Assembly (NCBI GenBank): GCA_977017645.1
Contig: OZ360222.1
Coordinates: 124,930,001 to 124,994,000 of the forward strand
Source: Torpedo marmorata
Lineage: Eukaryota
DNA: 64,000 nt
Reading direction: 5' to 3'
Positions 1,517 through 64,000 of the stretch are shown here, in pieces. The notes beneath the pieces were generated by a model. The model had not been told where the DNA came from. It searched no databases and saw only the letters and a list, made by a program, of their open reading frames with translations. Both the position numbers and the translations under genes were made by a program. The first letter of the stretch is position 1. Every line of letters starts with the position of its first letter.

Positions 1517-1549
<33 letters not shown>

Positions 1550-3330
1550 GTACACCAAGTCCTGGGGAAGTTAACTTTTTCAGTACCTGGCCCCAGTGTG
1601 TACTCCAAAAGACTTCATCCTTCCTGCTGACCGTCCGCAGTCCAAATGGTCAGTCATGGTCCATAACACCTCAAACAACTCTAACAAGTTTGCCAACAAG
1701 ATCTGCCCTTCCTAAACCCATGCTGCGTCTGCCTGATTGAACCCTTTCGTTCTAAATGTCTCACTATTTCATCCTTAATGACAGCTTCAAGCATTTTCCC
1801 AACTACAGACGTTAAGCTAATTGGCCGATAGTTCCTAGTCTTCTGCCTACATCCCTTCTTAAAAAGTGGCGTGACATTTGCTGTCTTCCAATCTGCCGGG
1901 ACCTGCCCAGAATCCAGAGAATTTTGGTATATGACCACCAATGCATCGACTATAACTTCTGCCATCTCCCTCAGAACCCTGGGATGCATTTCATCAGGAC
2001 CAGGGGATTTGTCCGGCTTTAGTCCCATTAGTTTTTTCATCACTATCTCCTTTGTGACAACTATTTTATCACGGCCTTCACCAACATTCGCATCCCTATC
2101 TCCACTCTTTGGCATGCTGGACGTGTCTTCCACCGTGAAGACTGACACAAAATATTTGTTCAAGGCCTCGGCCATTTCCTCATTATTCAATATCAATTTC
2201 CGCTTCTCATCTTCCAAGGGTCCTATGTTAACTCTAGCCACCCTCTTCCGTTTTATATATTTATAAAAAATTTTGCTATGTTTTTATATTTGTGCCAACT
2301 TACCTTCATAATCCTTTCTCCCCTTTCTTATTACCTGCTTTGTTGTCCCTTGTTTTCTTTTAAAGTTTTCCCAATCTTCCAGTTTCCCACTACTCTTTGC
2401 AACTTTGTACACCTGAGCTTTTAATTTTATACTCTCCTTTATTTCCTTAGTTAACCACGGCTGACTCTTCCCTCTCTTGCTGCCCAAATTCTTAACTGGA
2501 ATATATTTTTGTTGAGCATTGTAAAAAATCTCCTTGAAAATCATCCACTGTTCCTCAACTGTTCTACCAACTAGCCTGTGCTCCCAGTCCACGCTGACCA
2601 ATTCCTCCCTCATCCTGTGATAGTCTCCCCTGTTTAAGCATAATACATTAGTTTTAGATCTAACTATTTCTCCTTCCATCTGTATGAGAAATTCAATCAT
2701 ACTATGATCGCTATTTCCAAGAGGGTCCCTAACTATTACATCATTTACTCTACCTATCTCATTGCATAATACTAGATCCAAAATAGCATTCACTCTTGTT
2801 GGTTCCTTAACATGCTGCTCAAGAAAGCTATCACGGATGCATTCTATGAAGTCTTCTTCCAGACTCCCGCGACCAACTTGATTTTCCCAATCTACGTGGT
2901 AGTTAAAGTCCCCCATGACAACTGCCGTTCCATTCTTACATGCCTCACTTATCTCTCTGTTTACTGCTTGTGCCACTGTACTATTGTTATTTGGTGGGCG
3001 AAAGACAACACCCACCAGTGATTTTTTTCCCTTTGTTATTCTTAATCTCCACCCAGATGGACTCAACATTATGTTCCTTAGATCTTATATCATCTCTCAC
3101 TATTGCCTTGAACTCATCCTTGATTAAGAGCACCACACCTCCTCCCTTACCATCCTGTCTATGGTTTCGTACTACCTGATACCCTTGAAAGTTTAGTTCC
3201 CAATCATGGTCATCTTCTAGCCATGTTTCTGCAATAGCCACTAAATCATATGCCTGGGTACCGATTTGCGCCTCAAGTTCACTAACCTTGTTTCTAATAC
3301 TGCGGGCATTCAGATAAAGTTCCCTTATGC
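1..3330 (-). pseudogene. CR1 ORF2 (APE endonuclease-RT), frameshifted and split by an LTR insertion
   Basis: ORFs 2987-3466, 2284-3069 and 1681-2241 are consecutive CR1 ORF2 pieces in different frames. Confidence 0.9.
783..1668 (-). mobile_element. Solo LTR of the Gmr1-like family
   Basis: Reverse complement of the 20077-21001 LTR; TG..CA ends; 4-bp TSD CCTC at 779-782 and 1669-1672. Confidence 0.93.
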
Positions 3331-3637
3331 TCATTGACCTTTTAGAATCTAGTGACTTCTGTATCCTTTGCTTTTGATTTTGATTTTTTTGCCCTCCTTG
3401 TCTTTTTCCTAACACTTTCTTTGGTCTCTGTACCACCTTCCTCATTTTTACTGTGTAGGTTCCCATTCCCCTGCCCCACTAATTTAAACCTTCCCCAACA
3501 GCACTAGCAAAAGAACTCCCAAGTATATTTATCCCGCCCCTGCCCAGATGTAGACCTTCTGGCCTGTATTGGTCCCATCTGCCCCAGAACCGGTTCCAAT
3601 GCTTCAAGAAACTGAAACCTTCCCTCCAGCACCACTG

Positions 3638-4462
3638 TTAAAGCCATATATTCATTCTGACAATTCTGTTATTTGTATTCTCAGTAGCTCGTGGTACTGG
3701 TAATAATCCTGAGATTATTACTTTTAAGGTCCTACTCCTTAATCTATTTCCTAGCTCCCTAAATTCAGATTGTAGGAGCTCATCTCGCATTTTTACTATA
3801 TCGTTGGTACCAATATGGACCACGACAGCTGGCTGTTCACCCTCCCCTTCCAGAATGTCCTGCAGCCGCTCCGAGACATCCTTGACCCTTGCACCCGGGA
3901 GGCAGCACACCATCCGGGAGTCCTTTTTGCGGCCGCAGAAGCTCCTGTTTGTTCCTCTCACCATAGAGTCCCCTATAACTATTGCTCTACCTGACTTTTT
4001 CCTTCCCTCTTTCATAGCTGAGCCACTCACAGAGCAAGGATCCTGGCTTTTACTGCCTTCTCCTGGTGGGCCATCTCCCCCAACCATATCTAAAGCGGTA
4101 TATCTGTTACGAAGGGTGATGACCGCAGGAGACTCCCGCACTACCTTTCTGTTTACGCTCTTGCTGCTGGTCATCCAGTCCTTATCTACTTCTGCTCTCT
4201 TAAACTGCAGCGTGATCAACTCACTGAATGTCCTATCCACCATCATCTCCGCATCCCGGATGCTCCAAAGTGAGTCCACCTGCAGCTCCAGTGCCGTCAT
4301 GCGGTCTATCAGCAGTTGTAGCTGTACACACTTTGTGCACACGTAAACCTCAGGGACACTATCAGTCGTCCTGAGTTCCCACATGGCACAGGAGGAACAT
4401 GACACGGGTTGGAGCTCACCTGCCATGTCTGAAACGTGCACAGTTGTTTTGTTACTAATCAA
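3638..4462 (-). pseudogene. CR1 ORF1p: N-terminal Cys motif/coiled coil plus SGNH/GDSL esterase domain, premature stop
   Basis: CSSC...CTKC, IVIGDSMVRG (GDS block I), VHIGTND (block III), ISGLLP. Confidence 0.85.
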
Positions 4463-4511
4463 AGTGTCAAATTAGAAAGAAGAAACTTACCCTCAACCTC
4501 TCTGCGCCGAA

Positions 4512-4589: not shown

Positions 4590-5239
4590 GTGCCACTCAC
4601 TCGCTGGGCTGCTCCCTGTCCCTCTTATTTATTGGCCTTTTACCAATTAACCCCGACACCCTCTCCTGTACGCCCGACCAATGGCCGCCTCCGACTCCTC
4701 CTCTGACCCTTGCCGCAGGCCCCGGTAAGTAACTTTTAAAAAAGCCTCCTTACCTTCTCTCCGACTCTTTTCTCCTCTGTCGTCACAAGGAGTATGTTAA
4801 ATTCAGCAGCCAAAATGTTGCTATGTATCGTTAAGATAAGGATTTCCAGGCAGAAATTAGCTCAAGTTATTTCCTCCAGAAGTGAGTATCCCCACATGAT
4901 GGGGCTCCCTATAAGGTTGCCAAAAGGGAAAGGCAAAAGGGTATTATTTTGGAGACAAATGTCATGATTTTCAGTTTGTGTATTTTGAATATTACAATCA
5001 ATTCTCAAGACTAGCAATGTTTAGGTCTGCTCTCATTTGTATGCAGAGCTAAGTAATAGCGGTGTGGCAGTTGCAGTTATTGCTGCATATACCCCAGTGC
5101 CTTAATGCCTTTTCTCAACATGGTTAAGAGAAACCGAGATTGCCCCTTGACTCTGTGATATATTTCCGTAAAAATTATGGCCTCACTACCACAGACCAGA
5201 TGGTTATTACATCATTGGACTGATGTAATCGCTGCCACG

Positions 5240-5594
5240 TTATTCTGACGGGGCAATACTTGAGTGCGGCATCATCCTGGGTGTTGTCTTTGAGATATGA
5301 TGTTAAACTGAAGCCCCGTTGGTTAGTCATAAAATATCAAAAACCCCACTATCCTGAAGAAGAACAAGGAGGATTCCCCTCTGTGAATTAGTAGCCAATA
5401 ACCATATCCCTCAATCAACATCACTGTAACAGTTTGTCTGATCATTATCACATTGCTGTTTGTGGGAGCCTGCCGCATGCAAATTAGTTGCCAAGTTCCT
5501 TATATCACAAAAGATAAGTCCTTCATTGGCTCTAAAATGTTTGGGAAGGTTCTTAAATTATGAAAGGTTTTATAGAAATGGATGTCTTTCTTTC
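5240..5594 (+). mobile_element. DeuSINE (AmnSINE1/SacSINE1-like) Deu domain and 3' tail
   Basis: Blocks GATGTTAAAC-GA-GCCCCGT, TATCCCTCAATCAACATCACT, ATCATTATCACATTGCTGTTTGTGGGAG, TTCATTGGCT and tail GTCTTTCTTTC follow the remembered DeuSINE consensus. Confidence 0.8.
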
Positions 5595-8039
5595 ATTAAT
5601 CACACACTGGAAGTGCAAATAACGTAGAAAGCTAACTGATGATAAATGGCGGCAATTTGCTGCTTTGGAGGCTGATAGTTATGTTGCTTTGCAGAATATA
5701 GGAGAGTAGGCCATTGAAATCCTTTGGGCAAAGAAAGACATTATTTTAAGGAGTTCTGCTGCCTGATCAGCAAAAGTTTCCTCTTCGGCAAGACATGCCA
5801 GACTACGCTGGAAGGATCATCTCCCATAATCTTATCAGCAAAAATGATCAGTATTCAGAGGGTGCATGTGTACACAACTAGTTCACCACATTGTCAGCAT
5901 TGCAAGTATTGGGATGGGTATTAATAAACGCTAATCCACTTAATCCTAGATTACTGAACATTATAGTGGATATGGCAAATTCTTTCTTGAACAAATATGT
6001 TTACATTTGTAATCATGTGTCAAGTAAACCCATTTGCTGAAGATATTTTTGTATGGTTGGGTCATTCACTAATGAAGAAAACCTGTAATGTGCTTTCTTT
6101 AACCTAATTATTAAAACCTTTTACTGAAGTGTGACCTTTCGCAGACTCTCCTTCGAACCAGCCAAGGCACTGATAGTTGCCCATGGGCAAAACACAAAAT
6201 ATTGTGATGCTACTATGAGGAGACTAAGGATTACACATAGTCATTTAAATGTCAGGACCTCAGGGCTACCTTGCTCTATTCTGAAATGTAGTTTAAAGGA
6301 TTCATGATATTCTGTTGTCAGTAAAATAGTTAATGCAATACGTGATTTTTTTTTTAGTTAAAAGAAAAAGCAGTAATGGAAGAACTTTGCCTTCTCAGCT
6401 AATTCCATCAAACGTATCCCATTCAACAAACTATAGCTTCCTGCAGAGTTGAACCTCATTTGTGTCATTAATTACAATGAAAAGAATCACAGTATTTTTA
6501 TTAGCAGCCAGTTCGTTTCACTTTATTCAGCAATATTTACTGAACAAAAGGTGCAAACCTTGATGTTGTATTGACTTAGATTGAAAGCTACTTTTCTAAT
6601 AGTTTTAATTCAACTCTGTTTAAAACTAATTTGCCAAATAATATGTACGTTCACAATGATTGGACCTTTATACAATCTCCATGCACCATTGTAATTTCCC
6701 AAGTAAATAATCAAGTTTTAATGTAGATTATACCATGAGGTTTTCATTCATACTGATCAAAATTGTATAGAAGGACTGCATACAACAGATTATGAAAGAT
6801 AATTAATTTCTGAAACAATATTATACCTGTACATGTCAAGAGCCAGGGCACTAACAATTCAGTATCTTCACCGCAGGCGGTTACTCATCGGCATTCATTG
6901 TATGTTCTATCAATTGCTGAAGGTTTCCAAAGAGTTCACATTTCTGTTGTAAAAAGAACTGCGGCATTCAGGGAAGACTGTAGAAGACATTGGAATTCTA
7001 ACTTATATTAAAGCCTTTATGTAGTATTTTTAACATGATAATGGAGGGTGCAGATGAATCAATATGGAATTGTTCATTTTTAGGCGTAAGGAAAGAGTGA
7101 GGGCATGGCCTCAAAAGGAAGAAAGTTACTGAGAAACGTGGATGAAAGAAGAAGAACTACAAAGCAACCATGAGTCCTCCCAAAGCTGGCTTGGCCAAAG
7201 TTCTTCCTCAATTTTACTTTCTTTAAATCCGTTGTTGCCCCAGATCTCTTATCTTGAGTATATTTTACATGATATCATCATTTAATTGGTCAAAACATGA
7301 AAATACTGTAACACAAATTATGATGCATTTTGAAGTGGTTCAAAGTATGCAAACCATATTTTCAACTATTATTACTGAGTAGCCACCTCTGCACTCGAAT
7401 GTTCTATTTCACAGACACATATGTCTGATGCAATCTGATCTCTTTCTTCACATAGAACCATAGAACAACACAATAGCACAGAAACAGACCCTTTGGCCCA
7501 TCTAGTCCATGCCAAACTATTTACATGCATTTAATAAATGCACACAACAGCCAAAAAAAAGGTCAAAAGGCATGTTAAGTACAAAACTATGAAACTAATA
7601 GCTGTAAATCCAGGAGTGGACTATCCTGGTATGTTACTCATTATTACTCTGCAAGGTTTATTCTACCATTTACAATTAATTATAATTAATGCCTTCACTA
7701 TTCTCAAATTTAACCTATCTGGCAGCTTTCTCACTTTGAGAAGGATATAGCTGAGGTTATAATGGAACAACACTGCTGAATGTAGAATCTTGAGGTATAT
7801 CCTTTTTCACCATGTCAGTAGAAGTTAAAAGTGAGAAAAATTCTGCTTTCAACACATACGCATCTGGTTGAGCTGATGAATGTGACAAGTATTGTCTTAC
7901 ATTGTCTTGATGAGACTTCAACATGCTACTATCTTCTAGATGAATGTTGAATAAAACTGGTCCAGTGCAATCAATGGCACATCCAGATGACCAGATTCCA
8001 GATTCTAACATCTCATACAAATGCAGAATCATTTAGTTC

Positions 8040-21027: not shown

Positions 21028-21255
21028 TTAAAAATCCATCTTGGTAATTGAAGGAATCCCAGTTTGGTTTAAGGCATTCCTTTTGTAAAGCTAATTAAAA
21101 GCTAGTGTGTGTGTAAAAAAAAAAAAAACCAGCAACAATGGATGTAGAACATTTGGGGGCTCGTTGCGGGATTTGAATCAAAATCCATCTTGGTAATTGA
21201 AGGAATCCCAGTTTGGTTTAAGGCATTCCTTTTGTAAAGCTAATTAAAAGCTAGT

Positions 21256-22340
21256 GTGTGTGTAACAAAAAAACCAGCAACAATGGATGTAGAACATTTT
21301 TTGGAATCACCTGAACCTGATACTTTAAAAAAGGCGAAAAAGGAACAGTTAGTGGCTATAGCAACAGAGTTGGGCATTGCTTCTGTAAAACCATCTATGA
21401 AAAAGGCAGAGATTGGGAGAAAAATAGTCAAATACTATATAAAAGAAAAAAAGTTTGAGGAGAGCATGTTAGAGCAGTTTCCCAAGGGTAAACCTTCTGA
21501 AAACATACAGTTGGAACTAAAGAAATTAGAATTGGAATTGGAACAAAAGAGACACGAGAACGATGAGAGAAATAGGAGATATATGCTGGAAAAGATGAGG
21601 TTGGAAAATGAGAGGAGACAAGAAGAGCGCCAAGATCAAATTCGTCATCCTGCTGAGGGGTTTTTGGCTAGTAGAGAAGTTAGGTTGGTTCCTCCATTTG
21701 AGGAGGCAGAAATAGATAAGTACTTCCAACATTTTGAGAAGGTGGCTGTGAAATTAAAATGGCCACAAGACCAATGGTCTCTTATGTTACAAAGTGTAAT
21801 AAAAGGAAAAGCTCAGCAAGCTTATTGTACTCTTACCACGGAGCAAGCTGCTGATTATGAAATGGTGAAAAAGGCTATACTCCAGGCTTATGAGTTAGTT
21901 CCAGAGGCTTATAGACAGAAGTTTAGAAATTTAAAAAGATCAGCAACCCAATCTTATACAGAGTTTGCCTATGAAAAAGTTGTGTGTTTTGACAGGTGGT
22001 GCACATCTAAGGCAGTAAACAATGATTACAATCAATTGAGAGAATTGATAATAATCGAGGTGTGTTCCTGAGGATATTAAGGCATACTTAGATGAAAAGG
22101 AGGTGAAAACTTGGCAAAATTCAGCTAAGTTAGCAGATGAATATGCTTTAACCCACAAGCCGAAGTGGACGTCAGGTAGAATTTTCCAAAAGGTCACTGT
22201 GGATAATCAGAAGCAAGTGTAAAGTAAATTTGGAAGTGGTGTTAAGGAAAGGGATGAAGGAAAGTGGAAAAGGGAAAACAATTCGGGTCCCATTTGCCAC
22301 TACTGTAGGAAGGCTGGTCATATGATAGCAAGCTGTCCAG
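21256..22340 (+). pseudogene. Gag with SCAN-like capsid region and CCHC knuckle, frameshifted near 22060
   Basis: LVPPFEEAEIDKYFQHFEKVA, ELVPEAYRQKFRNL; CHYCRKAGHMIASC near 22295-22336. Confidence 0.82.
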
Positions 22341-24230
22341 TGTTGAAAAAGAAGAGAGAAAAGGATGCAACACCTAATGCATGTATTCAGAGTGAGAAGA
22401 TGTATAACACCCAGGAAGGAGATAAATTTACTGACAAAGTTAAAGATGTATTTAAACCTTTTGTGACTGATGGTTTTGATTCAGTTAAGGCAGGATCAAA
22501 ACAAGTTCCAGTGAAAATCTTGCGAGATACTGGAGCTGCTCAGTCACATGTGTTAGATAGTGTCTTGGAATTTTGTGAAGCTACTGACACCAGTGACATA
22601 AATTTAATTAAAGGAATTGGTGGTGAAGTTGAGTCCATTCCTTTGCACAAAATAGTATTGGACTCAGACTTGGTGGAAGGACCAGTTATAATAGGAGTGA
22701 GATCAGAGTTGCCCATAGAAGGAGTCTCACTGTTGTTAGGCAATGACTTGGCCAAGGGTAAAGTAGTTCCTGCAGTGCGAATGACCACTAAGCCAGTCAT
22801 TGATAAGTCAGAGAAAGACTCTGATATTTATCCGGCATGTGCCATAACCATGGCTATGTCTAAGAAAAATGTCACTGTAGAGAAGGCAGTGGAAAATAAC
22901 TTGGTAAAAGAAAAAGACAGTGATAATCAAGAAAACCTGGAAAAGGTTGAGCAATCTCCTATGTTACACCCATCCACTGATAAGACACCTAAAGGCACAG
23001 ATTTGTCACTATCCCATCAGGAGTTAATAGCAAGGCAAAAGGACAATCCTGATCTTGCTGAGGTGAGGGATAAGGTTCTCTCTGAAGAGGAGATTAAAAA
23101 GGTGCCAGTGGGTTATTATGAAAAAGATGGGGTGTTGATGAGAAAGTGGAGACCATGTGATGTTCCTTCCAATGAAGAATGGGCAGTAGTGCAGCAGGTT
23201 GTGATCCCTAAAGTATATAGGGATGCAATAATAACTTTGGCTCATAGTACACCCTTAGGTGGTCATCTTGGGGTGAAGAAAACTATAAGGAAGATAATGA
23301 AACAATTTTATTGGCCCAGTTTGAGAAGGGAGGTTGTAAGCTTTTGCCGGGCCTGTCACACTTGTCAGGTGGTGGGTAAACCTAATCATGGTCCCCTGGT
23401 GGCACCCTTGCAACCTATCCCTTCTTTCAGTGAGCCTTTCTCGAGAGTAATTGTGGACTGTGTTGGCCCATTGCCCAAAACCAAAGCGGGGAATGAGTAT
23501 TTGTTAACAATTATGTGTGCAGCCACCAGATTTCCTGAGGCCATTCCTCTGAGAAACATTAAAGCAAAGTCAATTGTAAAGGCTATGGTAAAGTTTTTCA
23601 CCTTGGTAGGTTTGCCAAGGGAAATTCAATCAGATCAGGGCAGTAATTTCATGTCAGGCGTTTTCCAACAAGTGGTTGATGGACTAGGAGTTAAACAGAT
23701 TGTATCCTCTGCGTACCATCCAGAAAGTCAAGGGGCCTTGGAGAGGTTCCATTCGACTTTGAAAACCATGATTAGAACCTATTGTTGTGAGAAGGAAAAG
23801 GATTGGGATGAGGGGGTTCATTTGTTGTTATTTGCAGCGAGGGAGTCTGTCCATTTGAGTTAGTTTTCGGACATGAGGTGAGAGGTCCTTTAAGATTATT
23901 AAAAGAACAGTGTATTAATCGTGATGTGCATTTAAATCTGTTAGATTATGTTTCCAAATTTAAGGATCGGTTACATAGGGCTTGTGAGATGGCAAAGGAG
24001 AATTCAAAGGCCACTCAACAGAGAATGAAGGTTTGGTATGATCGAAAGGCAAAGATGAGAACTTTTAAACCTGGTGAGAACGTATTAGTTCTGTTTCCCA
24101 TCCATTGAAATCCTCTTAGGGCTAGATTTTCAGGACCCTATAGAGTTAAGTCAAAAATTAATGATGTCACCTATGTCATAGAAACACCTAATCGCAGACG
24201 AGACATGTGAATATGATTAAGCCATATTTT
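22322..24230 (+). pseudogene. Protease-integrase of Gmr1-like pol
   Basis: ILRDTGA; H..GGHLG..C..C zinc motif; IVDCVGP, SDQGSNF, YHPESQGALERFH; GPY. Confidence 0.9.
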
Positions 24231-25010
24231 GAACAGGTGCCACACAAAGGGACTGAAAATGTACCAGAGGTACTGGTTATTGACAGGGGTAAGGAGGAGA
24301 CAGATAAAACAAGTTTCAGAGAGGGTCATGGGACTATTAATTCTCGGAGTTATGTAGTAGGACAGGGGCAGTTGGCACCAGTAGAGGCAAAGGTTGTGGC
24401 TATTTCCGAGTTCCCTGTTCCAACTGGTAAGAAAACTCTGAGGAGGTTCCTGGGAATGATTGGCTACTACCGCAAGTTCTGTAAATACTTTGCTGATCTT
24501 GCGCTCCCTCTCACAAATTTGCTTAGAAAGAAAGAAAAATTTGTATGGTCAACAGGTTGTCAGGAAGCATTTGCCAAATTGAAAGCCATGTTATGCCACC
24601 AACCTGTGCTTAAGTCACCTAATTTAGAACAGCCGTTTTCTTTAGCCGTGGATGCCAGCGATGAAGCTGTGGGTGCGGTGCTGTTACAGAAGAAGAACGA
24701 AGAGGACATTGACCATCCGGTATCCTACTTCTCGAAGAAGTTCAATGATCATCAAAGGAATTATTCAACCATAGAAAAAGAGTTGTTGGCTCTTGTGTTG
24801 GCTCTACAACACTTTGATGTGTATATCTGTACAGCTCAAAAACCACTCATAGTGTATACTGACCATAATCCATTGGTTTTTCTTTGTAAAATGAAAAATA
24901 AGAATCGACGGTTGTTGAATTGGAGTCTAATTTTGCAAGAATATAATTTGGTAATCACACATATAAAAGGGAAAGATAATGTAATTGCTGATTGTCTTTC
25001 TCGATGTTAA
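24207..25010 (+). pseudogene. RT thumb/connection and RNase H; RT palm absent
   Basis: LRRFLGMIGYYRKF, AVDASDEAVGAVLLQ, YSTIEKELLA, YTDHNPL, IADCLSR; no YxDD anywhere in the element. Confidence 0.88.
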
Positions 25011-32370: not shown

Positions 32371-35300
32371 TCAAATCCTTAAACCAACAGCCTTCATATA
32401 TGAGCTCCATATTTTCAAAAAGAAATGATATTTATTACGTAAATTATAAGTAATTTTTTCAAGTGGTATAGCTGAACGAAGTTCTGCATGCCATCTTTCT
32501 AACCCTAAATCTAGATCAGATTTCCAAGTAATAGCAATACATTTCTTTGAAACAGCTAAAGCAATTCGCAGAAATTCTATTTGATACATATTTAATTTCA
32601 TCTTAATACTAACTCTTTTAATATCTCCAAACAAAAATATCATAGGGTCCATTGGGAATGTAATTTTTAATACTTTATCAAAAAACTTTTTAACTTTCAA
32701 CCAAAAATCATAAACCTTTGGACAAAACCATGTAGAATGTACAAAAGAACCTTCCTCTCTATTACATCTAAAACATAAGCCTGATAATGTCGCGTTAAAT
32801 TTCTTTAATTCTTGATTTATGAATTCCTACTTTAGGGATTTTTCTCTGAAACAATCTATACATTTGAGAAATAAATTTATTTACACCTCCGTTAGTAACT
32901 AATAATTCTAGTTCACTCTGTCTTGGTAAAGTCAAACTATAGCCTAACTTCCCAACTAAAAATGCTCTAATTTGATAATAAGCAAAAAGTGTATTATTCA
33001 ATACATTAAACTTATCTTTCATTCTTTGAAAAGTAATAAATTTACCAGCTTCAAAACAATCATTTATTTTCTTAATTCCCTTTTGAAACCAAATTTTAAA
33101 TAATTGATTATCAACGGTAAATGGAATAAGTTTATTTTGATGTAAAGGCATTTTTGGAGAAATCAACCCTTTCCTTCCTATCTCCCTATGCACTCTATTC
33201 CATATTTCTAACAAATGTTTAAAAATAGGAGAGTTCTTCCCTCTTGTTAATAATAATTTAGAATTACATTTATAAATAACTTCTTCTTTCAAATCTTCTC
33301 CTATATATTATTTAGTTCTATTCTAATCCAAAGCAGAAGACTTAGTTAAATCAAACAATTCATTAACAAATTTTAATTGAGCTGCTTTATAATAATTTTG
33401 AAAATTAGGAAGTTGCAAACCACCCATTTCATATTTCCAAGTTAACTTCTCCATACCTACTCTAGCCAACTTTCCTTTCCACAAAAACTTCCTAATAATT
33501 AAATTTAAATCTTTGAAAATTTTTTGAGGAATTTCATAAGGAATTGATTGAAAAAGATATTGAATTCTTGGAAAAACATTCATTTTAATACAATTTACCC
33601 TTCCTATTAAAGTTATAGGTAAATCCTTCCAGCTTTCTAAATCTTTTTTAATTTTCATAAATAATGGTAAATAATTTAATTTATATAGATTAGTTAATTT
33701 AGTATCAATCTTTATTCCCAAGTATTTAATTCCTTCCTTTGACCATTTAACTTGTGTAATTTCTTTACATTTACTATAATCCCCTTGTGTTAATGCCATA
33801 ATTTCACTTTTATCAGAATTAATCTTATAACCAGATATTTCCCCATATTCTCTCAATAAAACAGTCAATTGTATTAAAGAAGTAATAGGTTTTGTCATAT
33901 AAATCAATACATCATCTGCAAATAAACTAATTTTATGCTCTTCTCATCCAACTTTAATACCTGCAATTTTAATATCCTGTCTAATTAATTCTGCCAAAGG
34001 TTCTATTGCTAAAATAAACAATGCTGGCGACAAAGGACATCCTTGTCTAGTTGACCTAGTCAAAGAAAATTTTGAAGAAATTTGTCCATTTGTCACCACT
34101 TTAGCAGATGGTTCTTTATATATAGTTTTAATCCAATTAATAAATGTAGTTCCAAAACCAAATTTCCCAAATACCTTAAATAAATAATTCCACTCTAATC
34201 TATCAAAAGCCTTTTCAGAATCTAATGTTAATACTAATGCTAAATCATCTTTCTTTTTTTCCACATTAATTAAACTAATTAATCTAGCTATGTTATCCTT
34301 TGAATATCTATTCTTAATAAACCCGGCTTGGTCTACATGGATTAAATCTGGTAAATAATTAGCCACTCTATTTGCTAAAATTTTTGCCATTATCTTATAA
34401 TCCACATTTAACAATGAAATTGGTCTATATGATTCTGTTTTCAACACATCTCTATCTTTTTTAGGTATAACTGTAATTATTGCATTCGAAAATGTTTCCG
34501 GTAACGAGTGAGTTTCCGTTATTTGTTTCAACACATCCATATATGGAGGTATCAATAAATCTTTAAACTCCTTATAAAATTTTGATGGGAAACCATCCTC
34601 CCCTGGAGATTTACCACTCGTTAAAGAACTAAGAACATCGTTAACTTCCCTCATTGAGAAAGACGAGTCTAAAAATTCTTTACTTTGAGTATTTAATCTA
34701 GGTAACTTAATTTTAGATAGAAATTCATTAATTTTAGAATCATCTTCATCAATCTGAGATTTATATAAATTCAAATAATAATCCTTAAAAGAATCATTTA
34801 TTTCTCGAGGTTTATATGTTATTTTCTTAGAATTCTTTTTTATAGCATTTATAGTTCTAGAAGTTTGATCTTTCTTTAGTTGCCACGCCAACACTTTGTG
34901 CTCTTTCTCCCAATTCATAATATCTTTGCTTAGTTCTTTCAATTAATTTTTCCATTTTATATGTTTGTAACAAATTATAATGCAATTTTTTCCCAACTAA
35001 ATTTTTCCTCTTTTCTTCTGATCTCTTTTTTTGCAAATCCTACTCCAAAAATTCAATCTCCCTCTCCAAATTATCTACCTCCCGAACATAGTCCTTCTTA
35101 ATTTTTGCTGAATAATTTATTATTTGGCCTCTTAAATAAGCCTTTAAAGCTTCCCAAATAATAAATTTATTATCAATCGAATTATAATTTATTTTTAAAA
35201 ATTCTTGAATTTCTCTTCTTATATAATCACAAAAATCCATTCTTTTTAATAAAGAAGAATTAAATATCCACCTATATATAGTTTTTTCTTTTTCTGGAAT

Positions 35301-39690: not shown

Positions 39691-40639
39691 TTTATTTATT
39701 TTTTTTAATTTTTTTTTTTAACCACCAAATAGAATTTACAATACAAGTCTTTAAAATAGTCTAATCCATTATACATGTGGTATATATATAAATCCCGCTC
39801 ACCCCACCCCCTCCCCCTAAAGCCCCAAGAAAGAAGGAAGAAAGAATGAAAAAGATACAAGATATAAGAAAAAAGACCAGAGATTGTCAAGAGAGTCCTT
39901 TTCCAGAAATCATATTTATCATGAAATAAAGGAGTTCACCAAGGATTGAGGTTACCAGAGAAATGGTTAAACATTCATTCCAACACTCTGCAAATATTGG
40001 CACCATATTTTCCAAAATATATGGTATCTATTCCTTAAGCTATATGTAATTTTTTCAAGTGGTATACAACTACGAATTTCCGCATTCCATCTCTCCATTC
40101 CTAAGTCTGTATCTGATTTCCAAGTTATAGCAATACATTTCCTAGATACTGCTAAGGCTTTTTTTTTGTAACAGTAATATACATAAATTTATCTCTGTAA
40201 TGTATGTTTTGTTACAAAAGGGATCTTCAAAAGAAGGGATGCATAAGTCAAGAGAGAGATTGGAAGTTGATTTGAATAGGCAAATAGATGAGTGAAATTG
40301 GATGGAGTTGTGTAGGGATAGTATAACAAATACAATTAATGTAAGATATAGATTGGTACAATATAATTTTTTACATCAGTTATACCTTACCCCGCAAAAG
40401 TTACATAGATTGGTGTTTTAGATGTGGACAAGAGGTTGGTACATTTTTGCATTCTACTTGGCAGTGTCCTAAGGTAAAACCTTTCTGGCTTGATGTGAGT
40501 AATTTATTACAACGAATAACAGGGATCAAATTCCCGCAGGATCCAATGCTATTTTTGTTAGGCAATATTAAAGGAATTACACCTAAATTAAAATTAAATA
40601 TGTATCAAATAAAGTTTGTAAAAATTGCTTTAGCAGTAT
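39691..40639 (-). mobile_element. 5'-truncated L1 with 5' inversion
   Basis: 13-bp TSD CTCTTTCAAACTT (39678-39690, 40640-40652); 39691-40158 is minus-sense L1 3' end; 40160-40639 is plus-sense upstream ORF2. Confidence 0.88.
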
Positions 40640-41065
40640 CTCTTTCAAACTTACTGATATCCATCCTGTAGTTAGGTGACCAAACTGCACACAATACTCA
40701 AAATTTGACCTCACCAATGTCTTATACAACTTCACCATAACATCCCAACTCCAACAGTCAATGCTTTGATTTATGAAGGCCAATGTGCCAAAAGCTCTCT
40801 TTATGACCTTATCTACCTGTGATGTCACTTTCAGGGAATTATGTATCTGTATTCCCAGATCCCTCTGTTCTACCGCACTCCTCAGTGCCCTACCATTTAC
40901 CGTGTATGTCTTTCCTTGGTTTGTCCTTCCAAAGTGCAACACCTCACATTTGTCTGCATTAAATTCCACCTGCCATTTGCAGCCCACTTTTCCAGCTGGT
41001 CCAAATCCCTCTGCAAGCTTTGAAACCCTTCCTCGCTGTCCACAACACCTCCAAACTGTGTGCGG

Positions 41066-41757
41066 TATAAGTAACGGTGACTTCGCTCCACCAATAGTCA
41101 CCTGGAGGCTAAGTGTGGTCCTTGCTTTTGACGCGTTTTATTTAATTTACTGACAAAGTCCAATATGTTCAAAAACCTTTATTTTCACACATGACTTGCA
41201 GTAATCTTCAATGACTTTAATATAAACAGTTCTTGTAAACGATGTATAATGAGTTCCTTTAAATTATTCCTTAAACAATTCCAAAACGATATGAAACACT
41301 GTAGATGATGTTAAAGTTATAGAAACATTATAAAACGGTATAAAAAGGTCAATAAAGATGTGGAGACCAGACTCACCCCCCATACATCTCTATCCTTTCT
41401 TTGTTCTCTCTCTCCAATGGTTCTGCGCATGCTCCAACGCGCATACTACAATTCCCAGCCTCCCACGCGCACTATGACGTCACTCTATACTGCGCATGCG
41501 CCCGTCGGCACTCCCGCGCATGCGCATATCAAAGAACGGGCCGACGACGGCCCACAGAACAACGCAAGCGCTCCAAGGCCCGACGTGGCCTCGGAGCGCT
41601 CAGAGGACGGCCCAGTGAACAACGCGAGCGCTCAATGGCCCGACGTGGCCTAGGAGCGCTCCGAGGACGGCCTACCGAACTACGCGAGCGCTCCAAGGCC
41701 CGACGAGACATCGGAGCGCCGCAACAACGGTAAGTCAATGAGCCTACGGCTCTTACA
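41066..41757 (-). repeat. 3' LTR of BEL element
   Basis: Direct repeat of 46513-47204; about 2 mismatches seen by eye. Confidence 0.96.
41541..41720. repeat. Three 60-bp GC-rich tandem units in LTR (copy at 46988-47167)
   Basis: Exact 60-bp period: GACGGCC..GAAC.ACGC.AGCGCTC.A.GGCCCGACG..GGAGCGC. Confidence 0.92.
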
Positions 41758-41959
41758 CCGGCCCCTAATTATTATAATTAGACGTAATGTCTTGAATAAT
41801 AATTACACTATAAATAATAATAACCATAACATTCAAAACAATACAAATCTTCTTTCTTCCTTCTTCATAAATCTAGAGTTTACCATAACTCTGATTCAAC
41901 AAAAGTCTGTAACCTGTGAAATGTACAACAACAAATAAAGTCAGTTCACATTTATCAAA

Positions 41960-42140
41960 GTTCCTCTGTCTCCAACAAAAGACAGACCTTATTAATAGGT
42001 CTGTTTAGAAAAACCAGTCTTAGTTTTAATTCGCACTTGACGCACAAGTCCTCTTTGTCTTGAAAAGTCTCAATAATCTTTTCCAAGTAACCAGGAATTT
42101 CTTGAAGTTGAATTATCCATAATAATCACAATGTCTCTTT
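41960..42140 (-). pseudogene. BEL integrase C-terminal (DUF5641-like) remnant
   Basis: Translating across frameshifts gives DIVIIMDNSTSRNSWLLG..IIETF..GLVRQVRIKTKTG..RPINKVCLLLE. Confidence 0.8.
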
Positions 42141-42188
42141 AAAGTTCTTTTATCTTCAAATCCGAGTCAAAACGTTAACCAGTAAACC

Positions 42189-43136
42189 TCAAATCCTCCT
42201 CAGATAAAATAGATACAGTTTTTTTTTGAATTTAACACAAGGCACTTCTTCAGCACGTCGTTTCACTTTATTCCTTTCTTCAGTATTCCACTTCTCATGT
42301 GAAAAATTTAAACTCTTAGAATTAGAATTTGAATATTTATCTGATTCTTTCGATTTTAAACAGGTCTGTTTAACCACTCTGGTTTCTATGGCTCTTTCCT
42401 GCAATTCTAAATCCAATTTTGCAATTTTCAATTCAGTCTCAGCTCCTTCCGAGAAATTAATAATTTGATCTGAAGTCAAAATATCATATGGTACATTGAT
42501 ATTTCCATTGTCAATCCTGTCGCGACAAACTTGAAATTTTTTAATTTCTTCATCTTGTTTGTTACATTTCTGCAATGCAATCTCACATTCTTTCTGCATT
42601 GTTAATTGTTGAACATTCAATTTACATTCTTGATTGATTTTTAAAGTCAACTGTTTTGTGTTATTAACCAATAACTTGTTCTCTTTCAAAACATTAATCT
42701 CTTCTTCCAACCTTTTACATTTTGATAATGCTGAATCTCTTTCCTCAATAACTGTATTCATTTCTTCAGCAGTTATTCTTTTCTTCCGCTTTCTGACTTT
42801 GCGAGTTTTACTTACAATTAAATCTTTCTGTTTACTGTTTTCTTGATTATCTAATATTTCCAATTCCCCTTTCAACATTTTGTTCTCTGGATTCAATTGC
42901 ATTGAATTATCATTCACATTATTCTTTATTCCATCAGCACAATTTTCTGTGTTCTCCAGTTTTACATCACATTGCAATATTTCTTCATTAGCTTTGTCTG
43001 TTGTAATCTCTGAACTACAAAATCTACATTCAGATTTGTTTTCAGTCACTTGTTTTATTCCTGTATCTGATTCAATTACACATGAATGATCAATAGTATT
43101 ATTTGCAATATCTTCTAATACTTCACTTTCATCCAT
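42189..43136 (-). CDS. Coiled-coil protein with MIPOL1-like segments, in place of pol
   Basis: Open 315 aa; RITAEEMNTVIEERDSALSKCKRLEEE closely resembles remembered vertebrate MIPOL1 RITAEEMSALIEERDAALSKCKRLEQE; basic NLS-like KTRKVRKRKKR. Confidence 0.75.
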   Translation of the reverse strand: MDESEVLEDIANNTIDHSCVIESDTGIKQVTENKSECRFCSSEITTDKANEEILQCDVKLENTENCADGIKNNVNDNSMQLNPENKMLKGELEILDNQENSKQKDLIVSKTRKVRKRKKRITAEEMNTVIEERDSALSKCKRLEEEINVLKENKLLVNNTKQLTLKINQECKLNVQQLTMQKECEIALQKCNKQDEEIKKFQVCRDRIDNGNINVPYDILTSDQIINFSEGAETELKIAKLDLELQERAIETRVVKQTCLKSKESDKYSNSNSKSLNFSHEKWNTEERNKVKRRAEEVPCVKFKKKLYLFYLRRI

Positions 43137-43142
43137 TTCTGA

Positions 43143-46127
43143 CTAAATTAATTCCTTCAATGTTGTTTTAAATACCATTGATTTATTTTCACATTGATCT
43201 GTTTTCTTTTCTTCATAAGTGATTTTCTTATTCACGGTTTTTTGCTCTTCGCTTAACTCTTCAACTTTCTCAACTGAAATTTTATTAATATTTATCGCTA
43301 CCTGTTCCTGAGCAATATCATTATTTCTTTCCATTGGTCCATTGATTGCCCAACCAAGTATGGTTCTTATAGCGTAAGGTCCATTCCTTTTACTTTCTAT
43401 TACTTCTTTTGGTACCAAAACCTTTGGCACATCTGAACCAATCAGCATTTCTATCTCAGAATTAATTTCAGGTAAATAAACCTTCCACAGATAAGCTAAA
43501 TGATGGATATCACTTTGATGAGGAATATTTCCTTCGTTCACAGGCATAGTCTTCTGAGTATATACACTTGGAAGATCACAAAATTTTTTGTCATCCAATC
43601 CAGCAACCTCTAAGCCTGAAACAATGTTAGTTTCAACAACCTTTTCTTGTCCCATGGTTTTTAACATAATTCTTGATTTTCTTCCTTGAATATTAAGTTT
43701 ATTCATTAGTCTTTCCGTGCAAAAAGATGCAGTGCTACCTGGGTCTAGAAATGCATATGTTTTTACTATTGCATCCCCTTTCTTGGCCTTAACTTGTACA
43801 GGCACTATTGAAAGTTTGCAGTTATTCACCCCGGCCCCAGTAAGACCACTTGTCTGAACCGAGGTTATAACATTATTTTCTGTTGTTTCCTTTGTTTCTG
43901 TTTGCTCCTTTTCCAATTCCTTGTTTCTGTTATGGACATGCAAAATTCTAGGATGTTTAAAATTGCATATGTCACAATTAATTTGCTTCTCGCAGTTTTT
44001 ACTGATGTGCCCTTTACACAGACAGCTAAAACATATTCCATTTTCCTTTAAGAAAGCGATCCTTTCTTTATGTTCCTTCCTTTCCAATTGTAAACACATT
44101 TCCAAAGCATGTCCACCTTTACAGAACAAACAACTCTTTTCATTAGGCAAACTTTCCTTTTCCTTATTTATTTTGTCCTTTTCTTTACTTATAACTTGCA
44201 CATTAGTAGCAAAAGTACTCCTTTTCACTTTCGGACTAGACTGTGAATTAGACTTCCTTACATCTTTGCTCATTGAATTATCTCTGGTATTTCCATATAG
44301 TGGATCTGTTTCAACATACACTTGTCGTTCTAGAAAATTTACCAAATCCTTTAAAGTAATTCTTCGACCATAATTTACTTGTAAATCACAAGCCAAATTT
44401 CTCCATCTATCCCATACCTTGTAAGGTAATTTTTCTAAAATGATTCGCATATTACTATGCACATCAAGCTCACGAATACCATCGATTTCTTCCATAGCAT
44501 TACAACATCCTCTTAAAAACAAAGTATATTCTTGCAAAGCCTTTACATCATTTTGTTTTATTGATGTCCATTTAAGAGCTTTATCCATATAAGCTAAAGC
44601 AATTCGATGTTTGTTGCCAAAATATTGTTCCAATAAATCCTTAGCTTTTTCTAATCCTCTTCCTGAAGACATTTGGTTACAACTTTTTACCAGTTCTTTT
44701 GGATGTCCCTTTGTGAACATTTCCAAATAATAAAGACATTCATCACGATCTTGACATTTATCTTCAATATTGCGTTTGAAAGATCTCATAAACGATTGAT
44801 ATTGAAGTGGATCACCATCAAAAGTTTGTATCTCTTTCTTGGGTAAAGAAGAGAGAGACTGTAACTGAAACAATGATGCAGCAATTTCATTTTGTCTTTC
44901 CTTGGATGACAATACATTACTCTGTTCACTGTCTCGTGTTGTATGCAATGTATCTGGAAACCTTACTGGTGTAGTTTCTTCCATATTTCTGATGCTTGGC
45001 TCATATAACAAAGAAGCTGCTTCGTTCGACCGTACCCAATCCGCAGCTTTGCTTTCAGATGTTATTATTGGTACATGTGACTCGATACCAATATGCTCTT
45101 GAAAGGTTTGTCCTTGTATACGTAAGTTTTGTATCCTTGGTTCTAAAATATCTATCCTTTTGGTTGGTTTCTTTTCCTGTGATTCCTTTTTTAAATATGA
45201 CCTTTTATTATCAGATAATTTAGATAATTTACTGCTAGCACCAGATACCATTGAGCCTTCTATTGCTTTCTTTTCTGCCTTGGCAATAGCAATGTTTGCT
45301 TCCAGCTCCTGCAGTTCTTTTCTCTGTCTTAGCTGCTCCTTCTCTTGTCTTAGCTGCTCCTTTAGCTGCTTCTCATTTTGTCTTAGCTGCTCCTTTAGCT
45401 GCTCCTCATTTTGTCTTAGCTGCTCCTCCTCTTGTCTTAGCTGCTCCTCCTTTCGTCTTAGCTGCTCCTCCTTTTGTCTTAGCTGCTCCTTTAGCTGCTT
45501 CTCATTTTGTCTTAGCTGCTCCTTTAGCTGCTCCTCATTTTGTCTTAGCTGCTCCTCCTCTTGTTCTAATATAAATTTATCCTTAAGCGTTTTTTGTTGT
45601 GCAAGAAGAGCGGCCAATTTAACATCAACCTTTGTACGTGACGATGCAGAACTTGAAGTACGAGAAACTCTGGAGCTTGAACCAGAACTTCTTTTGCTTC
45701 TCCTGCTTTCAGCATTTGAGACACTGTCACTTGCTTGTATTTCGTCCTGCAGTTCATATGTTGTCTTCATACTTACCTCTTTATCCAATTCAAATTGTTC
45801 ATCATTTGTTGACACAATTTCAGCCATTTCCAAGTTATCTTCTTGTTCAACTAATGAAGCTGCCTCTTCATCCTTTGCCAGCTTCAATCTTTCAATAAGA
45901 ACCTTTTTATTTCCACTTATGTCCTTATTCAGTCGCTTCAATTCTTCTTTAATATCCGCAACCTTCATGTCTTCAATACGTTGGTCCTCAACAGCAACAT
46001 CAGCGGTTGCTGCGTCAGCTGCTGATAAATCAGTAGCTGCTGTATCAGTGGCTGCTGCGGCCATTTTACTCGTCTTGTTCCTCTTTCCTTCAAGCATACA
46101 CAACACTAGCCAAACAACAGTCCCCAA
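43143..46127 (-). CDS. SAP domain, coiled coil, BEL Gag (DUF1759-like, 3 zinc knuckles) and aspartic protease polyprotein; likely ATG at 46064
   Basis: Open 994 aa: MKVADIKEELKRLNKDISGNKKVLIERL (SAP); LPKKEIQTFDGDPLQY; CLFCKGGHALEMC, CFSCLCKGHISKNC, CDICNFKHPRILH; YAFLDPGSTASF; RTILGWAINGP. Confidence 0.9.
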   Translation of the reverse strand: MGTVVWLVLCMLEGKRNKTSKMAAAATDTAATDLSAADAATADVAVEDQRIEDMKVADIKEELKRLNKDISGNKKVLIERLKLAKDEEAASLVEQEDNLEMAEIVSTNDEQFELDKEVSMKTTYELQDEIQASDSVSNAESRRSKRSSGSSSRVSRTSSSASSRTKVDVKLAALLAQQKTLKDKFILEQEEEQLRQNEEQLKEQLRQNEKQLKEQLRQKEEQLRRKEEQLRQEEEQLRQNEEQLKEQLRQNEKQLKEQLRQEKEQLRQRKELQELEANIAIAKAEKKAIEGSMVSGASSKLSKLSDNKRSYLKKESQEKKPTKRIDILEPRIQNLRIQGQTFQEHIGIESHVPIITSESKAADWVRSNEAASLLYEPSIRNMEETTPVRFPDTLHTTRDSEQSNVLSSKERQNEIAASLFQLQSLSSLPKKEIQTFDGDPLQYQSFMRSFKRNIEDKCQDRDECLYYLEMFTKGHPKELVKSCNQMSSGRGLEKAKDLLEQYFGNKHRIALAYMDKALKWTSIKQNDVKALQEYTLFLRGCCNAMEEIDGIRELDVHSNMRIILEKLPYKVWDRWRNLACDLQVNYGRRITLKDLVNFLERQVYVETDPLYGNTRDNSMSKDVRKSNSQSSPKVKRSTFATNVQVISKEKDKINKEKESLPNEKSCLFCKGGHALEMCLQLERKEHKERIAFLKENGICFSCLCKGHISKNCEKQINCDICNFKHPRILHVHNRNKELEKEQTETKETTENNVITSVQTSGLTGAGVNNCKLSIVPVQVKAKKGDAIVKTYAFLDPGSTASFCTERLMNKLNIQGRKSRIMLKTMGQEKVVETNIVSGLEVAGLDDKKFCDLPSVYTQKTMPVNEGNIPHQSDIHHLAYLWKVYLPEINSEIEMLIGSDVPKVLVPKEVIESKRNGPYAIRTILGWAINGPMERNNDIAQEQVAININKISVEKVEELSEEQKTVNKKITYEEKKTDQCENKSMVFKTTLKELI
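45320..45562. repeat. In-frame 21/12-bp minisatellite encoding EEQLRQ/KEQL coiled coil
   Basis: Reiterated TGTCTTAGCTGCTCC and TTTAGCTGCT units. Confidence 0.9.
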
Positions 46128-46512
46128 TGGACCAGCGGCAGCAATTCCAATCTGTGTTCTTACTTGCTAAAGATACACAGAAGGAGTCCACAGACTTATG
46201 CCTACCACTTCAAATGACTGTAATGTGCTGCAATCCACAAACGAGTTTCAACCACAACATCCGTCACTAATATCACTGATTTTCCAAAAAATAGTTTCTC
46301 CAACGTATTTATAGGACACTTTATTATAAAATTTGAAGCTTTAAATCCCTCTCTGGCTGTTATTCATGGCAGATGGATGTGGATTACAAACTGCCCCCAA
46401 CTCGAGGCATCTCCAAAATGGCCACCACCTTTATATCAGTCCAAAGCACAGAGAGTTTTTTCTATCTTCTTTCCTTCAAACTTCTGTTCCAAACAGCCAG
46501 CTCTTTATTGAC

Positions 46513-47204
46513 TATAAGTAACGGTGACTTCGCTCCACCAATAGTCACCTGGAGGCTAAGTGTGGTCCTTGCTTTTGACGCGTTTTATTTAATTTACTGA
46601 CAAAGTCCAATATGTTCAAAAACCTTTATTTTCACACATGACTTGCAGTAATCTTCAATGACTTTAATATAAACAGTTCTTGTAAACGATGTATAATGAG
46701 TTCCTTTAAATTATTCCTTAAACAATTCCAAAACGATATGAAACACTGTAGATGATGTTAAAGTTATAGAAACATTATAAAACGGTATAAAACGGTCAAT
46801 AAAGATGTGGAGACCAGACTCACCCCCCATACATCTCTATCCTTTCTTTGTTCTCTCTCTCCAATGGTTCTGCGCATGCTCCAACGCGCATACTACAATT
46901 CCCAGCCTCCCACGCGCACTATGACGTCACTCTATACTGCGCATGCGCCCGTCGGCACTCCCGCGCATGCGCATATCAAAGAACGGGCCGACGACGGCCC
47001 ACAGAACAACGCAAGCGCTCCAAGGCCCGACGTGGCCTCGGAGCGCTCAGAGGACGGCCCAGTGAACAACGCGAGCGCTCAATGGCCCGACGTGGCCTAG
47101 GAGCGCTCCGAGGACGGCCTACCGAACTACGTGAGCGCTCCAAGGCCCGACGAGACATCGGAGCGCCGCAACAACGGTAAGTCAATGAGCCTACGGCTCT
47201 TACA
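46513..47204 (-). repeat. 5' LTR of BEL element
   Basis: TGTAAGAG...CTTATA on minus strand. Confidence 0.96.
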
Positions 47205-47821
47205 TGCGGTCTACAAACTTGCTGATCCAATTGACCACATTATCATCCAGATCATTGATATAAATGTCAAACAACAATGTACCCAGCACCGATCCTTGAG
47301 GCACATCACTAGTCACAGGCCTCTAGGCCGCCACAACCCCCTCTGGCTTCTCCCTTCTCTCCGACCTTCTGTTAGTTCTCTTATTCACCAGCATTTAGCC
47401 TTGTTGGTATGATCTCAGCAGCCAGCTCTTAAAGGGATTGACCACCATTTATGTAATACTCTTCCATTTATGGAAATAACTTGCTTCTGAATGAATGAGG
47501 GGGAGAGTGAGTGCTCCAAGGCAATGAGAAGTTGGATGGTTGGCAGGCACTTTGGTTGCAGGGATACAAATACTTTCCAAGTCCATAGCCAAACCTTCCT
47601 GGCAGGAGATTTACAGAAAAGTCCGTGTAAAGACATGAGCAGAATCTATGAGTGCCTGCACTTTGGGAAGGTCTCTAACATTGTGCCCACTCTACCACTC
47701 CTGTGGTGCAAGGGAAATGTAAATGAATTCTTTCTCCTGGAGATTGTAATTTTTGGTGAAAGTCCCCATGCAGCAGTGAGTGGTGAGAAGTTTCAAAGAT
47801 TGGCAAATGATGCCAAAGACA

Positions 47822-62289: not shown

Positions 62290-64000
62290 TAACCATATAA
62301 CATTTACAGCACAGAAATAGGCCAGTTCGGCCCTTCGCGTCCATGCTGAACACATTCTCCCACCTAGTCCCACTGACCCGCACCCGGCCCATAACCCTCC
62401 ACACCTCTATCGTCCATATACCTATCCAACTTTTCCTTAAACATTAAAATTGAACCTGCATCTACCACTTTGGCCGGAAGCTCGTTCCACCCTCCTACCA
62501 CCCTCTGAGTGCAGAAATTCCCCCTCATGTTTCCTCTAAACTATTCCCCCTTCAATCTCAATCCATGCCCTCTTGTTTGAATCTTCCCCTCTGTCAATGG
62601 AAAAAGCCTGTCCACATTGACTCTTTCTTTCCCCTTCATAATTTTAAATACCTCTATCAAATCACCCCTCAACCTTCTACGCTCCAGGGAATAAAGTCCC
62701 AGCCTGTTCAACCTTTCCCTATAACTCAAACCCAGAAACCCAGGCAACATTCTTGTAAATCTCCTCTGCACTCTCTCTATTCTGTTTATAACCTTCCTAT
62801 AATTCGGTGACCAAAACTGCACACAATATTCCAAATTTGGCCTCACCAATGCCTTATACAACTTCAACATGACATCCCAACTCCTATATTCAATACTCTG
62901 ATTTATGAAGGCCAACATACCAAATGCCTTCTTCACCACCCTATCTACGTGTGACTCAACTTTCAGGGAATTATGTACCAGAATTCCTAAATCCCTCTGT
63001 TCTACTGCACTTCTCAATTGTCTTCCATTTAACATGTATCACCTTTGCTGATTAATCCTACCAAAATGTAGCACCTCACATTTATCAGTATTAAATTCCA
63101 TCTGCCATGTTTCCGCCCACTCTTCTAACTGTCCAATATCCCCCTGCAAGCTTTGATATCCTTCTTCACTGTCCACAACACCACCAATCTTCGTATCATC
63201 TGCATACTTACTAATCCAATTTACCACCCTATCATCTAGACCATTAATATATATGACAAACAACAATGGACCCAATACCGATCCCTGAGGCACTCCACTA
63301 GTCACCGGCCTCCAATTTGACAAACAATTTTCCACCACTACTCTCTGGCATCTCCTATCCAACCATTGTTGAATCCATTTCACTACTTCGTCGTTAATAC
63401 CTAATGCTTGAACCTTCCTAACGAGCCTCTTATGCGGAACCTTGTCAAATGCCTTACTAAAGTCCATATAGACAACATCCACAGCCTTCCCCTCGTCAAC
63501 CCTCTTAGTAACCTCATCGAAAAACTCTATGAGATTTGTCAAGCATGATCTACCACGAACAAAACTGTGTTGACTACTCCTAATCAATGCTTGTCTTTCC
63601 AAATAACTGTATACACCATCTCTAAGAACACTCTCCATTAATTTACCCACCACTGATGTCAGACTCACAGGCCTATAATTTCCAGGTTTACTTTTGGAGC
63701 CCTTCTTAAACAGCGGGACAACATGCGCTACCCTCCAATACTCCGGCACCTCCCCCGTGGCCAGTGACATTTTAAATATTTCTGTCAGAGCCCCTACTAT
63801 TTGTACACTAACCTCCCTCAGGGTCCTCGGGAATATCCTGTCAGGACCTGGAGATTTATCTACATTTATACTCTTTAAAATAGCCAATACTACCTCCTCA
63901 TTAATCTTTATATTATCCATGACCTCCCTGCCAGATTGCTTTACTTCACCTGGCTCAAAATTCCTTTCCTTTGTAAATACTGAAGAAAAAAATCATTTAA
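62290..64000 (-). mobile_element. CR1 3' half, well-preserved RT with one in-frame stop; continues past window end
   Basis: ORFs 63039-63920 and 62541-63035 share a frame: YMDFSKAFD, GVPQGSVLGP, KYADD; CR1 3'UTR. Confidence 0.93.

Follow-up and report, generated by a model that had tools for sequence, protein, structure and literature searches.

A non-autonomous BEL/Pao family in Torpedo marmorata with an in-frame BRCA1–MIPOL1–Elongin A cargo, its MIPOL1 part likely derived from a circular RNA

Does an LTR element with almost identical LTRs, no reverse transcriptase (RT) and host-like sequence in the place of its pol genes represent an accident at one locus or a mobile family, and where does its cargo come from? 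The window that raises this question is a stretch of 64,000 nucleotides of the Torpedo marmorata genome, for which an earlier note had proposed that the deleted chimeric form itself was being mobilised. We consider it highly probable that the element belongs to a BEL/Pao family that is non-autonomous, its RT, RNase H and integrase having given way to an in-frame fusion of BRCA1, MIPOL1 and Elongin A sequences, with the MIPOL1 part likely derived from a circular RNA and the family likely mobilised in trans.

Sequence comparison places the element at positions 41066-47204 of the window, on the minus strand (6.1 kb). Its LTRs of 692 nt each (5′ LTR, 46513-47204; 3′ LTR, 41066-41757; both minus strand) differ only at positions 41346 and 41685, and the 5′ LTR is 97-98% identical to the LTRs of autonomous copies. 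It is flanked by a perfect 5-bp target site duplication (TSD; 41061-41065 and 47205-47209) and has, directly before the 3′ LTR, a polypurine tract (PPT; 41758-41770, minus strand) identical to that of the autonomous copies, with which it also shares the stretch following the 5′ LTR. The LTR termini are TG...TA, not TG...CA; the TA end is found in intact and RT-less members of this young family alike (window 41066-41069 and 46513-46516; L100-L107), versus CA in the older family described below. Native BEL sequence encoding Gag and an aspartic protease occupies 43242-46166 (minus strand), as supported by Pfam and by comparison with an autonomous relative, and the Gag region contains a SAP domain (about 45882-45977, minus strand), a Q/E/K/R coiled-coil repeat, DUF1759 and zinc knuckles, followed by the protease (about 43347-43787, minus strand), which is matched by weak DUF1758/Asp-protease models. 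The LTRs, the 5-bp TSD, the PPT and the DUF1759/DUF1758 Gag-protease place the element in the BEL/Pao lineage, and its Gag-protease is highly identical to that of an element bearing Peptidase_A17 and DUF5641. The coiled-coil repeat (window 45293-45597), with units of 12, 21 and 33 nt, varies in length among copies, and nearly all of these changes are in frame.

Beyond SAP, DUF1759 and the weak DUF1758/Asp-protease matches, the Pfam scan of the window element detected no RT, RNase H or rve domain, and only residues 1-1011 and 2076-2126 of the autonomous relative could be aligned with it, the latter in two frames. These last residues correspond to an out-of-frame relic of the integrase C-terminus (41955-42137, minus strand) derived from the current autonomous family. 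At the nucleotide level, element positions 1-3963 and 5068-6139 align with intact copies, and 1104 nt (window 42138-43241) stand in place of about 3.2 kb of the latter. The element is thus not an autonomous BEL/Pao retrotransposon, RT, RNase H and integrase being absent from its ORF. The earlier note had described this architecture correctly from the letters alone, including the near-identical LTRs, TSD, PPT, own Gag and protease, missing enzymes and frameshifted integrase relic. It erred in counting the SAP domain as cargo: intact copies carry SAP in their Gag, so the domain is native.

The insertion appears to interrupt a LINE fragment (40586-41065 and 47205-47330), which we presume to be of CR1 type. 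Other LINE fragments lie at 2284-4471, 33944-34942 and 63039-63992, the last two with an RVT_1 domain, and the left flank resembles the end of the LINE RT at 63039-63992 (17/22 aa), so that the element likely inserted into a LINE. Elsewhere in the window (21244-25010, plus strand) there is a decayed Gypsy-type element with a SCAN-like Gag and its integrase before the RT/RNase H part, an order that we take to be that of the Gmr1 clade.

A single post-insertion deletion or a misassembly could produce one such structure, and the earlier note had named a single copy as a ground for abandoning its reading. We searched the genome with the 3′ internal part, which gave 40 best places at 97-100% identity; all 39 other than the window copy were retrieved, and all 39 proved identical in internal structure from end to end. 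A search with Gag-protease only pointed to 39 other places, and the 20 retrieved from these all lacked pol and carried the cargo. The structure is therefore common to all 59 further copies examined, which rules out a unique deletion or assembly error. Both LTRs could be aligned in 57 of them, with 0-1 mismatches between the LTRs in 38 of these 57 pairs, and a TSD was called in 43 of the 59, 41 of the TSDs being different. These copies were chosen as top-scoring matches, so the sample leans towards young and intact ones. Some of them (L050, L055, L047, L119) adjoin or sit inside copies of the same family, as nested or tandem insertions. Sequencing-run contigs under three organism labels (X2, X5, X6) cover 30/30 bins of the element at 80% likeness, and X4 covers 27/30, a coverage that we do not read as expression or depth.

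The RT-less chimeric form is hence a family of scattered insertions, with TSDs of their own and LTR pairs that are almost identical. As for the enzymes, a Peptidase_A17 profile search returned 150 scored matches, from which we retrieved eight with long frames. All eight have a single ORF, 2043-2134 codons long, and share LTR family and PPT with the window element, to which intact relatives are 94-100% identical outside the cargo; the one intact copy that we scanned contains SAP, RT, A17, rve and DUF5641. There are thus both many dispersed copies with their own TSDs and a helper sharing their cis-acting ends, which is what defines a non-autonomous, trans-mobilised LTR element, and these comparisons suggest that the RT-less family was likely moved in trans by the intact elements. 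The core of the earlier proposal, mobilisation of the deleted form itself, holds up, and the autonomous BEL elements that it had suggested looking for do exist.

In the window copy, two ORFs, 1007 and 317 codons long when counted from stop to stop, abut at one stop, and the earlier note had accordingly reported two ORFs totalling about 1310 codons. That description is accurate for this copy and fails as a family trait: in 45 of 60 copies one uninterrupted frame runs from Gag through protease to cargo, and in the other 15, the window copy included, it is broken or shortened; the stop at 43143-43145 and the 1-nt frameshift near 42218 are both private to the window copy. ORFs broken in other copies, together with a dN/dS near 1, had been proposed as an argument against the mobile chimera; most copies keep the frame, and the substitution ratios are considered below.

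The second ORF of the window copy matches MIPOL1 proteins (35 matches, best E 4e-13), in agreement with the MIPOL1-like ORF of the earlier note, although MIPOL1 is only one of its sources, as the ORF consists of BRCA1, permuted MIPOL1 and Elongin A. These could be told apart thanks to an older family, found by searching the genome with MIPOL1, that has Gag-protease, a fuller cargo and other LTRs (TG...CA). It is 74-80% identical to the window element, and its LTR pairs are 88-92% identical in the three of six loci where both LTRs were found. As lower bounds, the genome holds at least 60 young and at least 170 older copies. The cargo derives from three host genes, spliced and in frame, and forward exon junctions of MIPOL1, BRCA1 and Elongin A are crossed without introns inside the LTR element. 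The best protein matches of the older-family cargo are from rays.

The 5′ cargo of the older family corresponds to about residues 204-384 of the ray BRCA1 protein, and in the window element to a fragment shortened relative to the older family (42825-43241, minus strand), which holds the private stop. An alternative assignment of this part to Elongin A was rejected. The host BRCA1 gene was singled out by a PF12820 search, whereas BRCT and DNA searches did not single it out; the cargo crosses the acceptor of the host BRCA1 exon (on contig C61) without intron, and genome searches did not locate the upstream BRCA1 exon of the cargo in the host gene. The 3′ cargo of the older family corresponds to about residues 373-622 of Elongin A; the host exon (on contig C41) ends at residue 478 and the cargo continues, spliced, beyond it. 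In the window element, the Elongin A fragment (42165-42374, minus strand) ends the fusion ORF and contains the private frameshift. The older family carried the start of the Elongin_A domain in frame, whereas the young ORF ends before this domain, in which the BC-box of Elongin A presumably lies. Older sub-lineages (e.g. L151 and L162) are set apart by an in-frame deletion of 111 nt within the Elongin A part, so that in-frame shrinkage of the cargo had already begun in the older family. Between the MIPOL1 and Elongin A parts, the older family has a linker of 17-18 nt whose best non-self match is the start of the older LTR in all five older loci (13-16 of 18 nt). The BRCA1/MIPOL1, MIPOL1/LTR and LTR/Elongin A joints all fall mid-exon. 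At the inner switch points, microsimilarity amounts to no more than 2 exact nt for BRCA1/MIPOL1 and 1 nt for MIPOL1/LTR, and an 8-nt repeat is found at a later deletion.

The MIPOL1 part is organised differently. In older copies, residues 444-553 are followed directly by residues 295-380, such that exon order is permuted. The host exon ending at residue 553 has its GT donor at C40:64385709-743, the sole match to the donor pattern in the whole genome, and the host exon starting at residue 295 has a tandem acceptor at C40:64591861-894, 206 kb upstream of the donor (this acceptor pattern has six matches, the five others on other contigs, two of which were examined and are cargo copies). The host exon preceding the residue-295 exon ends at a GT donor. 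The older cargo joins the host donor exactly to the upstream AG of the tandem acceptor, in frame, and this exact 23-nt joint has 170 matches genome-wide; tens of thousands of copies, as candidate counts had suggested, are not supported. Five host MIPOL1 exons are matched at 91-98% by the older copies; one internal cargo exon of about 99 nt was not located in the host gene. Donor patterns for one MIPOL1 exon gave no host match, and that exon was found inside locus L155. In the window element, the downstream exons (residues about 450-553; 42520-42824, minus strand) end at the host donor and the upstream exons (from residue 295; 42375-42519, minus strand) start at the host acceptor; the joint at 42520/42519 is eroded yet can be aligned to that of the older copies. 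Three near-identical, diverged cargo copies (L157-L159, G000:C80:15.6-16.7 Mb) have a short deletion at this joint and a different Gag junction; they may represent a third sub-lineage or have arisen by segmental duplication.

A downstream donor joined to an upstream acceptor, with no exon from outside the putative circle, is the hallmark of a retrocopy derived from a circular RNA, and we think that the MIPOL1 part was likely copied from such a back-spliced molecule. All MIPOL1 residues in the cargo fall within 295-553, with a gap at 381-443, the pattern that an RT stopping short of one full round on a circular template would leave. The same family, mobilised in the same way, might instead owe its permutation to trans-splicing or to a backward RT template switch on linear MIPOL1 mRNA, where the AG at both exon ends offers 2 nt of microsimilarity. 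The element does have several other template-switch joints, and other routes to non-colinear joints have been noted (Dong et al. 2016, PMC4897178), but those other joints lie mid-exon, whereas both MIPOL1 breakpoints coincide exactly with splice sites, including the upstream AG of the tandem acceptor. As this origin also has to accommodate the single-copy donor pattern and the absence of any MIPOL1 sequence from beyond the putative circle, we regard it as unlikely.

How did a cargo assembled in the older family come to reside between the ends of the younger one? The window element is 94-100% identical to intact copies as far as about element position 3790 and 79-83% identical between 3800 and 3950, shows no identity over the cargo, and is again 96-100% identical after 5100; compared with the older family, it is 64-90% identical throughout Gag and cargo and shows no identity over 5050-5200. 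This profile shows two switch points. The tail of the protease (43242-43420, minus strand), which shares only about 80% identity with the autonomous family and with the older one alike, is likely the left edge of a cassette brought from the older backbone. Synonymous distance between the young and old families is 0.44 in the protease versus 0.24 in the cargo. From these identity patterns, the cassette was likely captured on the older BEL backbone and then moved to the current one by recombination, in a double crossover.

The fate of the cargo after capture can be read from substitutions and indels. Using 15 and 6 older loci and column-wise yardsticks, Ka/Ks between young and old copies is 0.30-0.32 in the protease, 0.62 in the Gag core and 1.06 in the cargo (BRCA1 1.19, MIPOL1 1.08, Elongin A 0.93). 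Within the young family, where uncorrected pN/pS, already 0.36-0.73 for singletons, was replaced by degeneracy-class counts, the 0-fold/4-fold ratios of shared variants are 0.12 in the protease (p 6e-4), 0.59 in the Gag core (p 0.047) and 0.95 in the cargo; ratios below 1 are likewise seen for singletons in several regions (0.40-0.62), so these within-family tests carry less weight. The protease is 98% identical in amino acids to that of intact elements, and its purifying signal may have been imported by recombination with them. The 213 differences over 355 codons include no stop where 12.9 would be expected (P about 8e-7 under an independent-site model), and all seven fixed deletions (family-wide positions, compared with at least two of five older loci) are multiples of three, with a chance of (1/3)^7. 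Among the 60 young copies, the nine nonsense variants are all singletons, and four of the five shared indels in the ORF outside the Gag repeat are multiples of three, the fifth being located 14 codons before the end, whereas this holds for only 1 of 12 in the leader and 3′ relic, our non-coding control. Some older copies add private frameshifts. The cargo frame has thus been kept open while its amino acids drift neutrally, and no protein function is supported: of the two objections of the earlier note, a ratio near 1 does apply to the cargo and shows no sign of protein selection, with the frame still open.

Two other explanations bear on this pattern. The cargo protein could be functional, as a coiled-coil tail aiding Gag-protease assembly or, for the Elongin A part, as a decoy or adaptor for host factors, which would fit the strongly kept frame, the in-frame joints and the domain start once held by the older family. 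Ratios close to 1 in each of the three parts, large deletions through every one of them and a young ORF that stops short of the Elongin_A domain make this quite unlikely. Alternatively, the frame might be open by chance in an untranslated cargo, breaks being rare if few source lineages underlie the young family, and the stop expectation does rest on independent sites and column-wise yardsticks; given the two chance values above and the different behaviour of the non-coding control, we find this very improbable. We favour instead a cargo acting as a stuffer tail, under selection for translatability rather than for its amino acids, the most likely reason being that an early stop would leave the genomic RNA with a long, destabilising 3′ UTR.

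These elements can be assembled into a scenario. An older BEL lineage would have taken up the three RNAs one after the other, as RT changed template within particles; on the MIPOL1 circle, RT would have copied less than one round, through the back-splice joint, and the 17-18-nt piece of the lineage's own LTR start would be the trace of an intermediate chimera. The cassette would then have passed to the backbone of the now-active family by crossovers in the protease tail and the integrase C-terminus, and the resulting copies may produce Gag and protease themselves and assemble together with a helper polyprotein that brings in RT and integrase. It seems reasonably probable that a vertebrate LTR retrotransposon captured a circular RNA in its particle, fixed the joint in frame in a three-gene Gag-protease fusion, amplified it to hundreds of copies and passed the translatable cassette to a younger helper lineage, leaving a direct record of circRNA retrocopying and of a satellite outliving its helper. 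The family would also preserve, in fossil form, a circRNA isoform of the germ line, and would illustrate neatly how an open frame can be selected without selection on its amino acids. Its hundreds of BRCA1-, MIPOL1- and Elongin A-like fragments are bound to mislead both gene annotation and the calling of circRNAs in this genome.

Among titles and opening lines of abstracts in the open literature, outside repeat databases and supplements, we found no paper on this family or on a back-splice joint inside an amplifying LTR element. Gene-transducing non-autonomous LTR elements are already known, and the present family differs from them by its back-splice-type joint, copy number and backbone transfer. 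Maize Bs1 is an LTR element that contains segments of three host genes in a chimeric ORF and has 1-5 copies per Zea genome (PMC13317346, PMC5131818). Our family resembles it in the three host genes, in switch points common to the copies and in secondary retroposition, and differs by its at least 60 young and at least 170 older copies, its vertebrate BEL/Pao setting, the back-splice-type joint and the second backbone, so that it is an animal counterpart of Bs1 at much higher copy number; with regard to a Bs1-like functional chimeric gene, what it shows is a kept frame together with a cargo Ka/Ks of about 1. Animal LTR-mediated retrocopies (Tan et al. 2016, PMC5131818) include multi-gene chimeras, among them one in Pao BATUMI and one in BEL18, and likewise have host mRNA pieces replacing part of the internal ORF of a non-autonomous element; those described are young, low-copy and mostly decaying when older, whereas in our family the frame has withstood about 0.24 substitutions per site, and no word beginning with "circ" occurs in that paper. 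Plant TR-GAG elements are mobile and non-autonomous, keep Gag and have lost the enzymes, as in our case, but are shorter than 4 kb, related to Copia/Gypsy and presented in their abstract without host cargo (PMC4350172), in contrast with a cargo-bearing BEL element of 6.1 kb. The circRNA-derived pseudogenes of mouse circRFWD2 share with our family a non-colinear exon joint at splice sites, many copies and nearby LTR sequence (Dong et al. 2016, PMC4897178). In that study the LTR enrichment of their flanks was a correlation and the mechanism was called unknown, so that the route by which circRNAs, lacking a poly(A) tail, return to the genome was not settled. Unlike in those pseudogenes, the joint described here is in frame and enclosed by a complete LTR element that has its TSD, PPT and Gag-protease and a helper that can be identified, a context that points to packaging and template switching and that hundreds of dated copies make open to testing.
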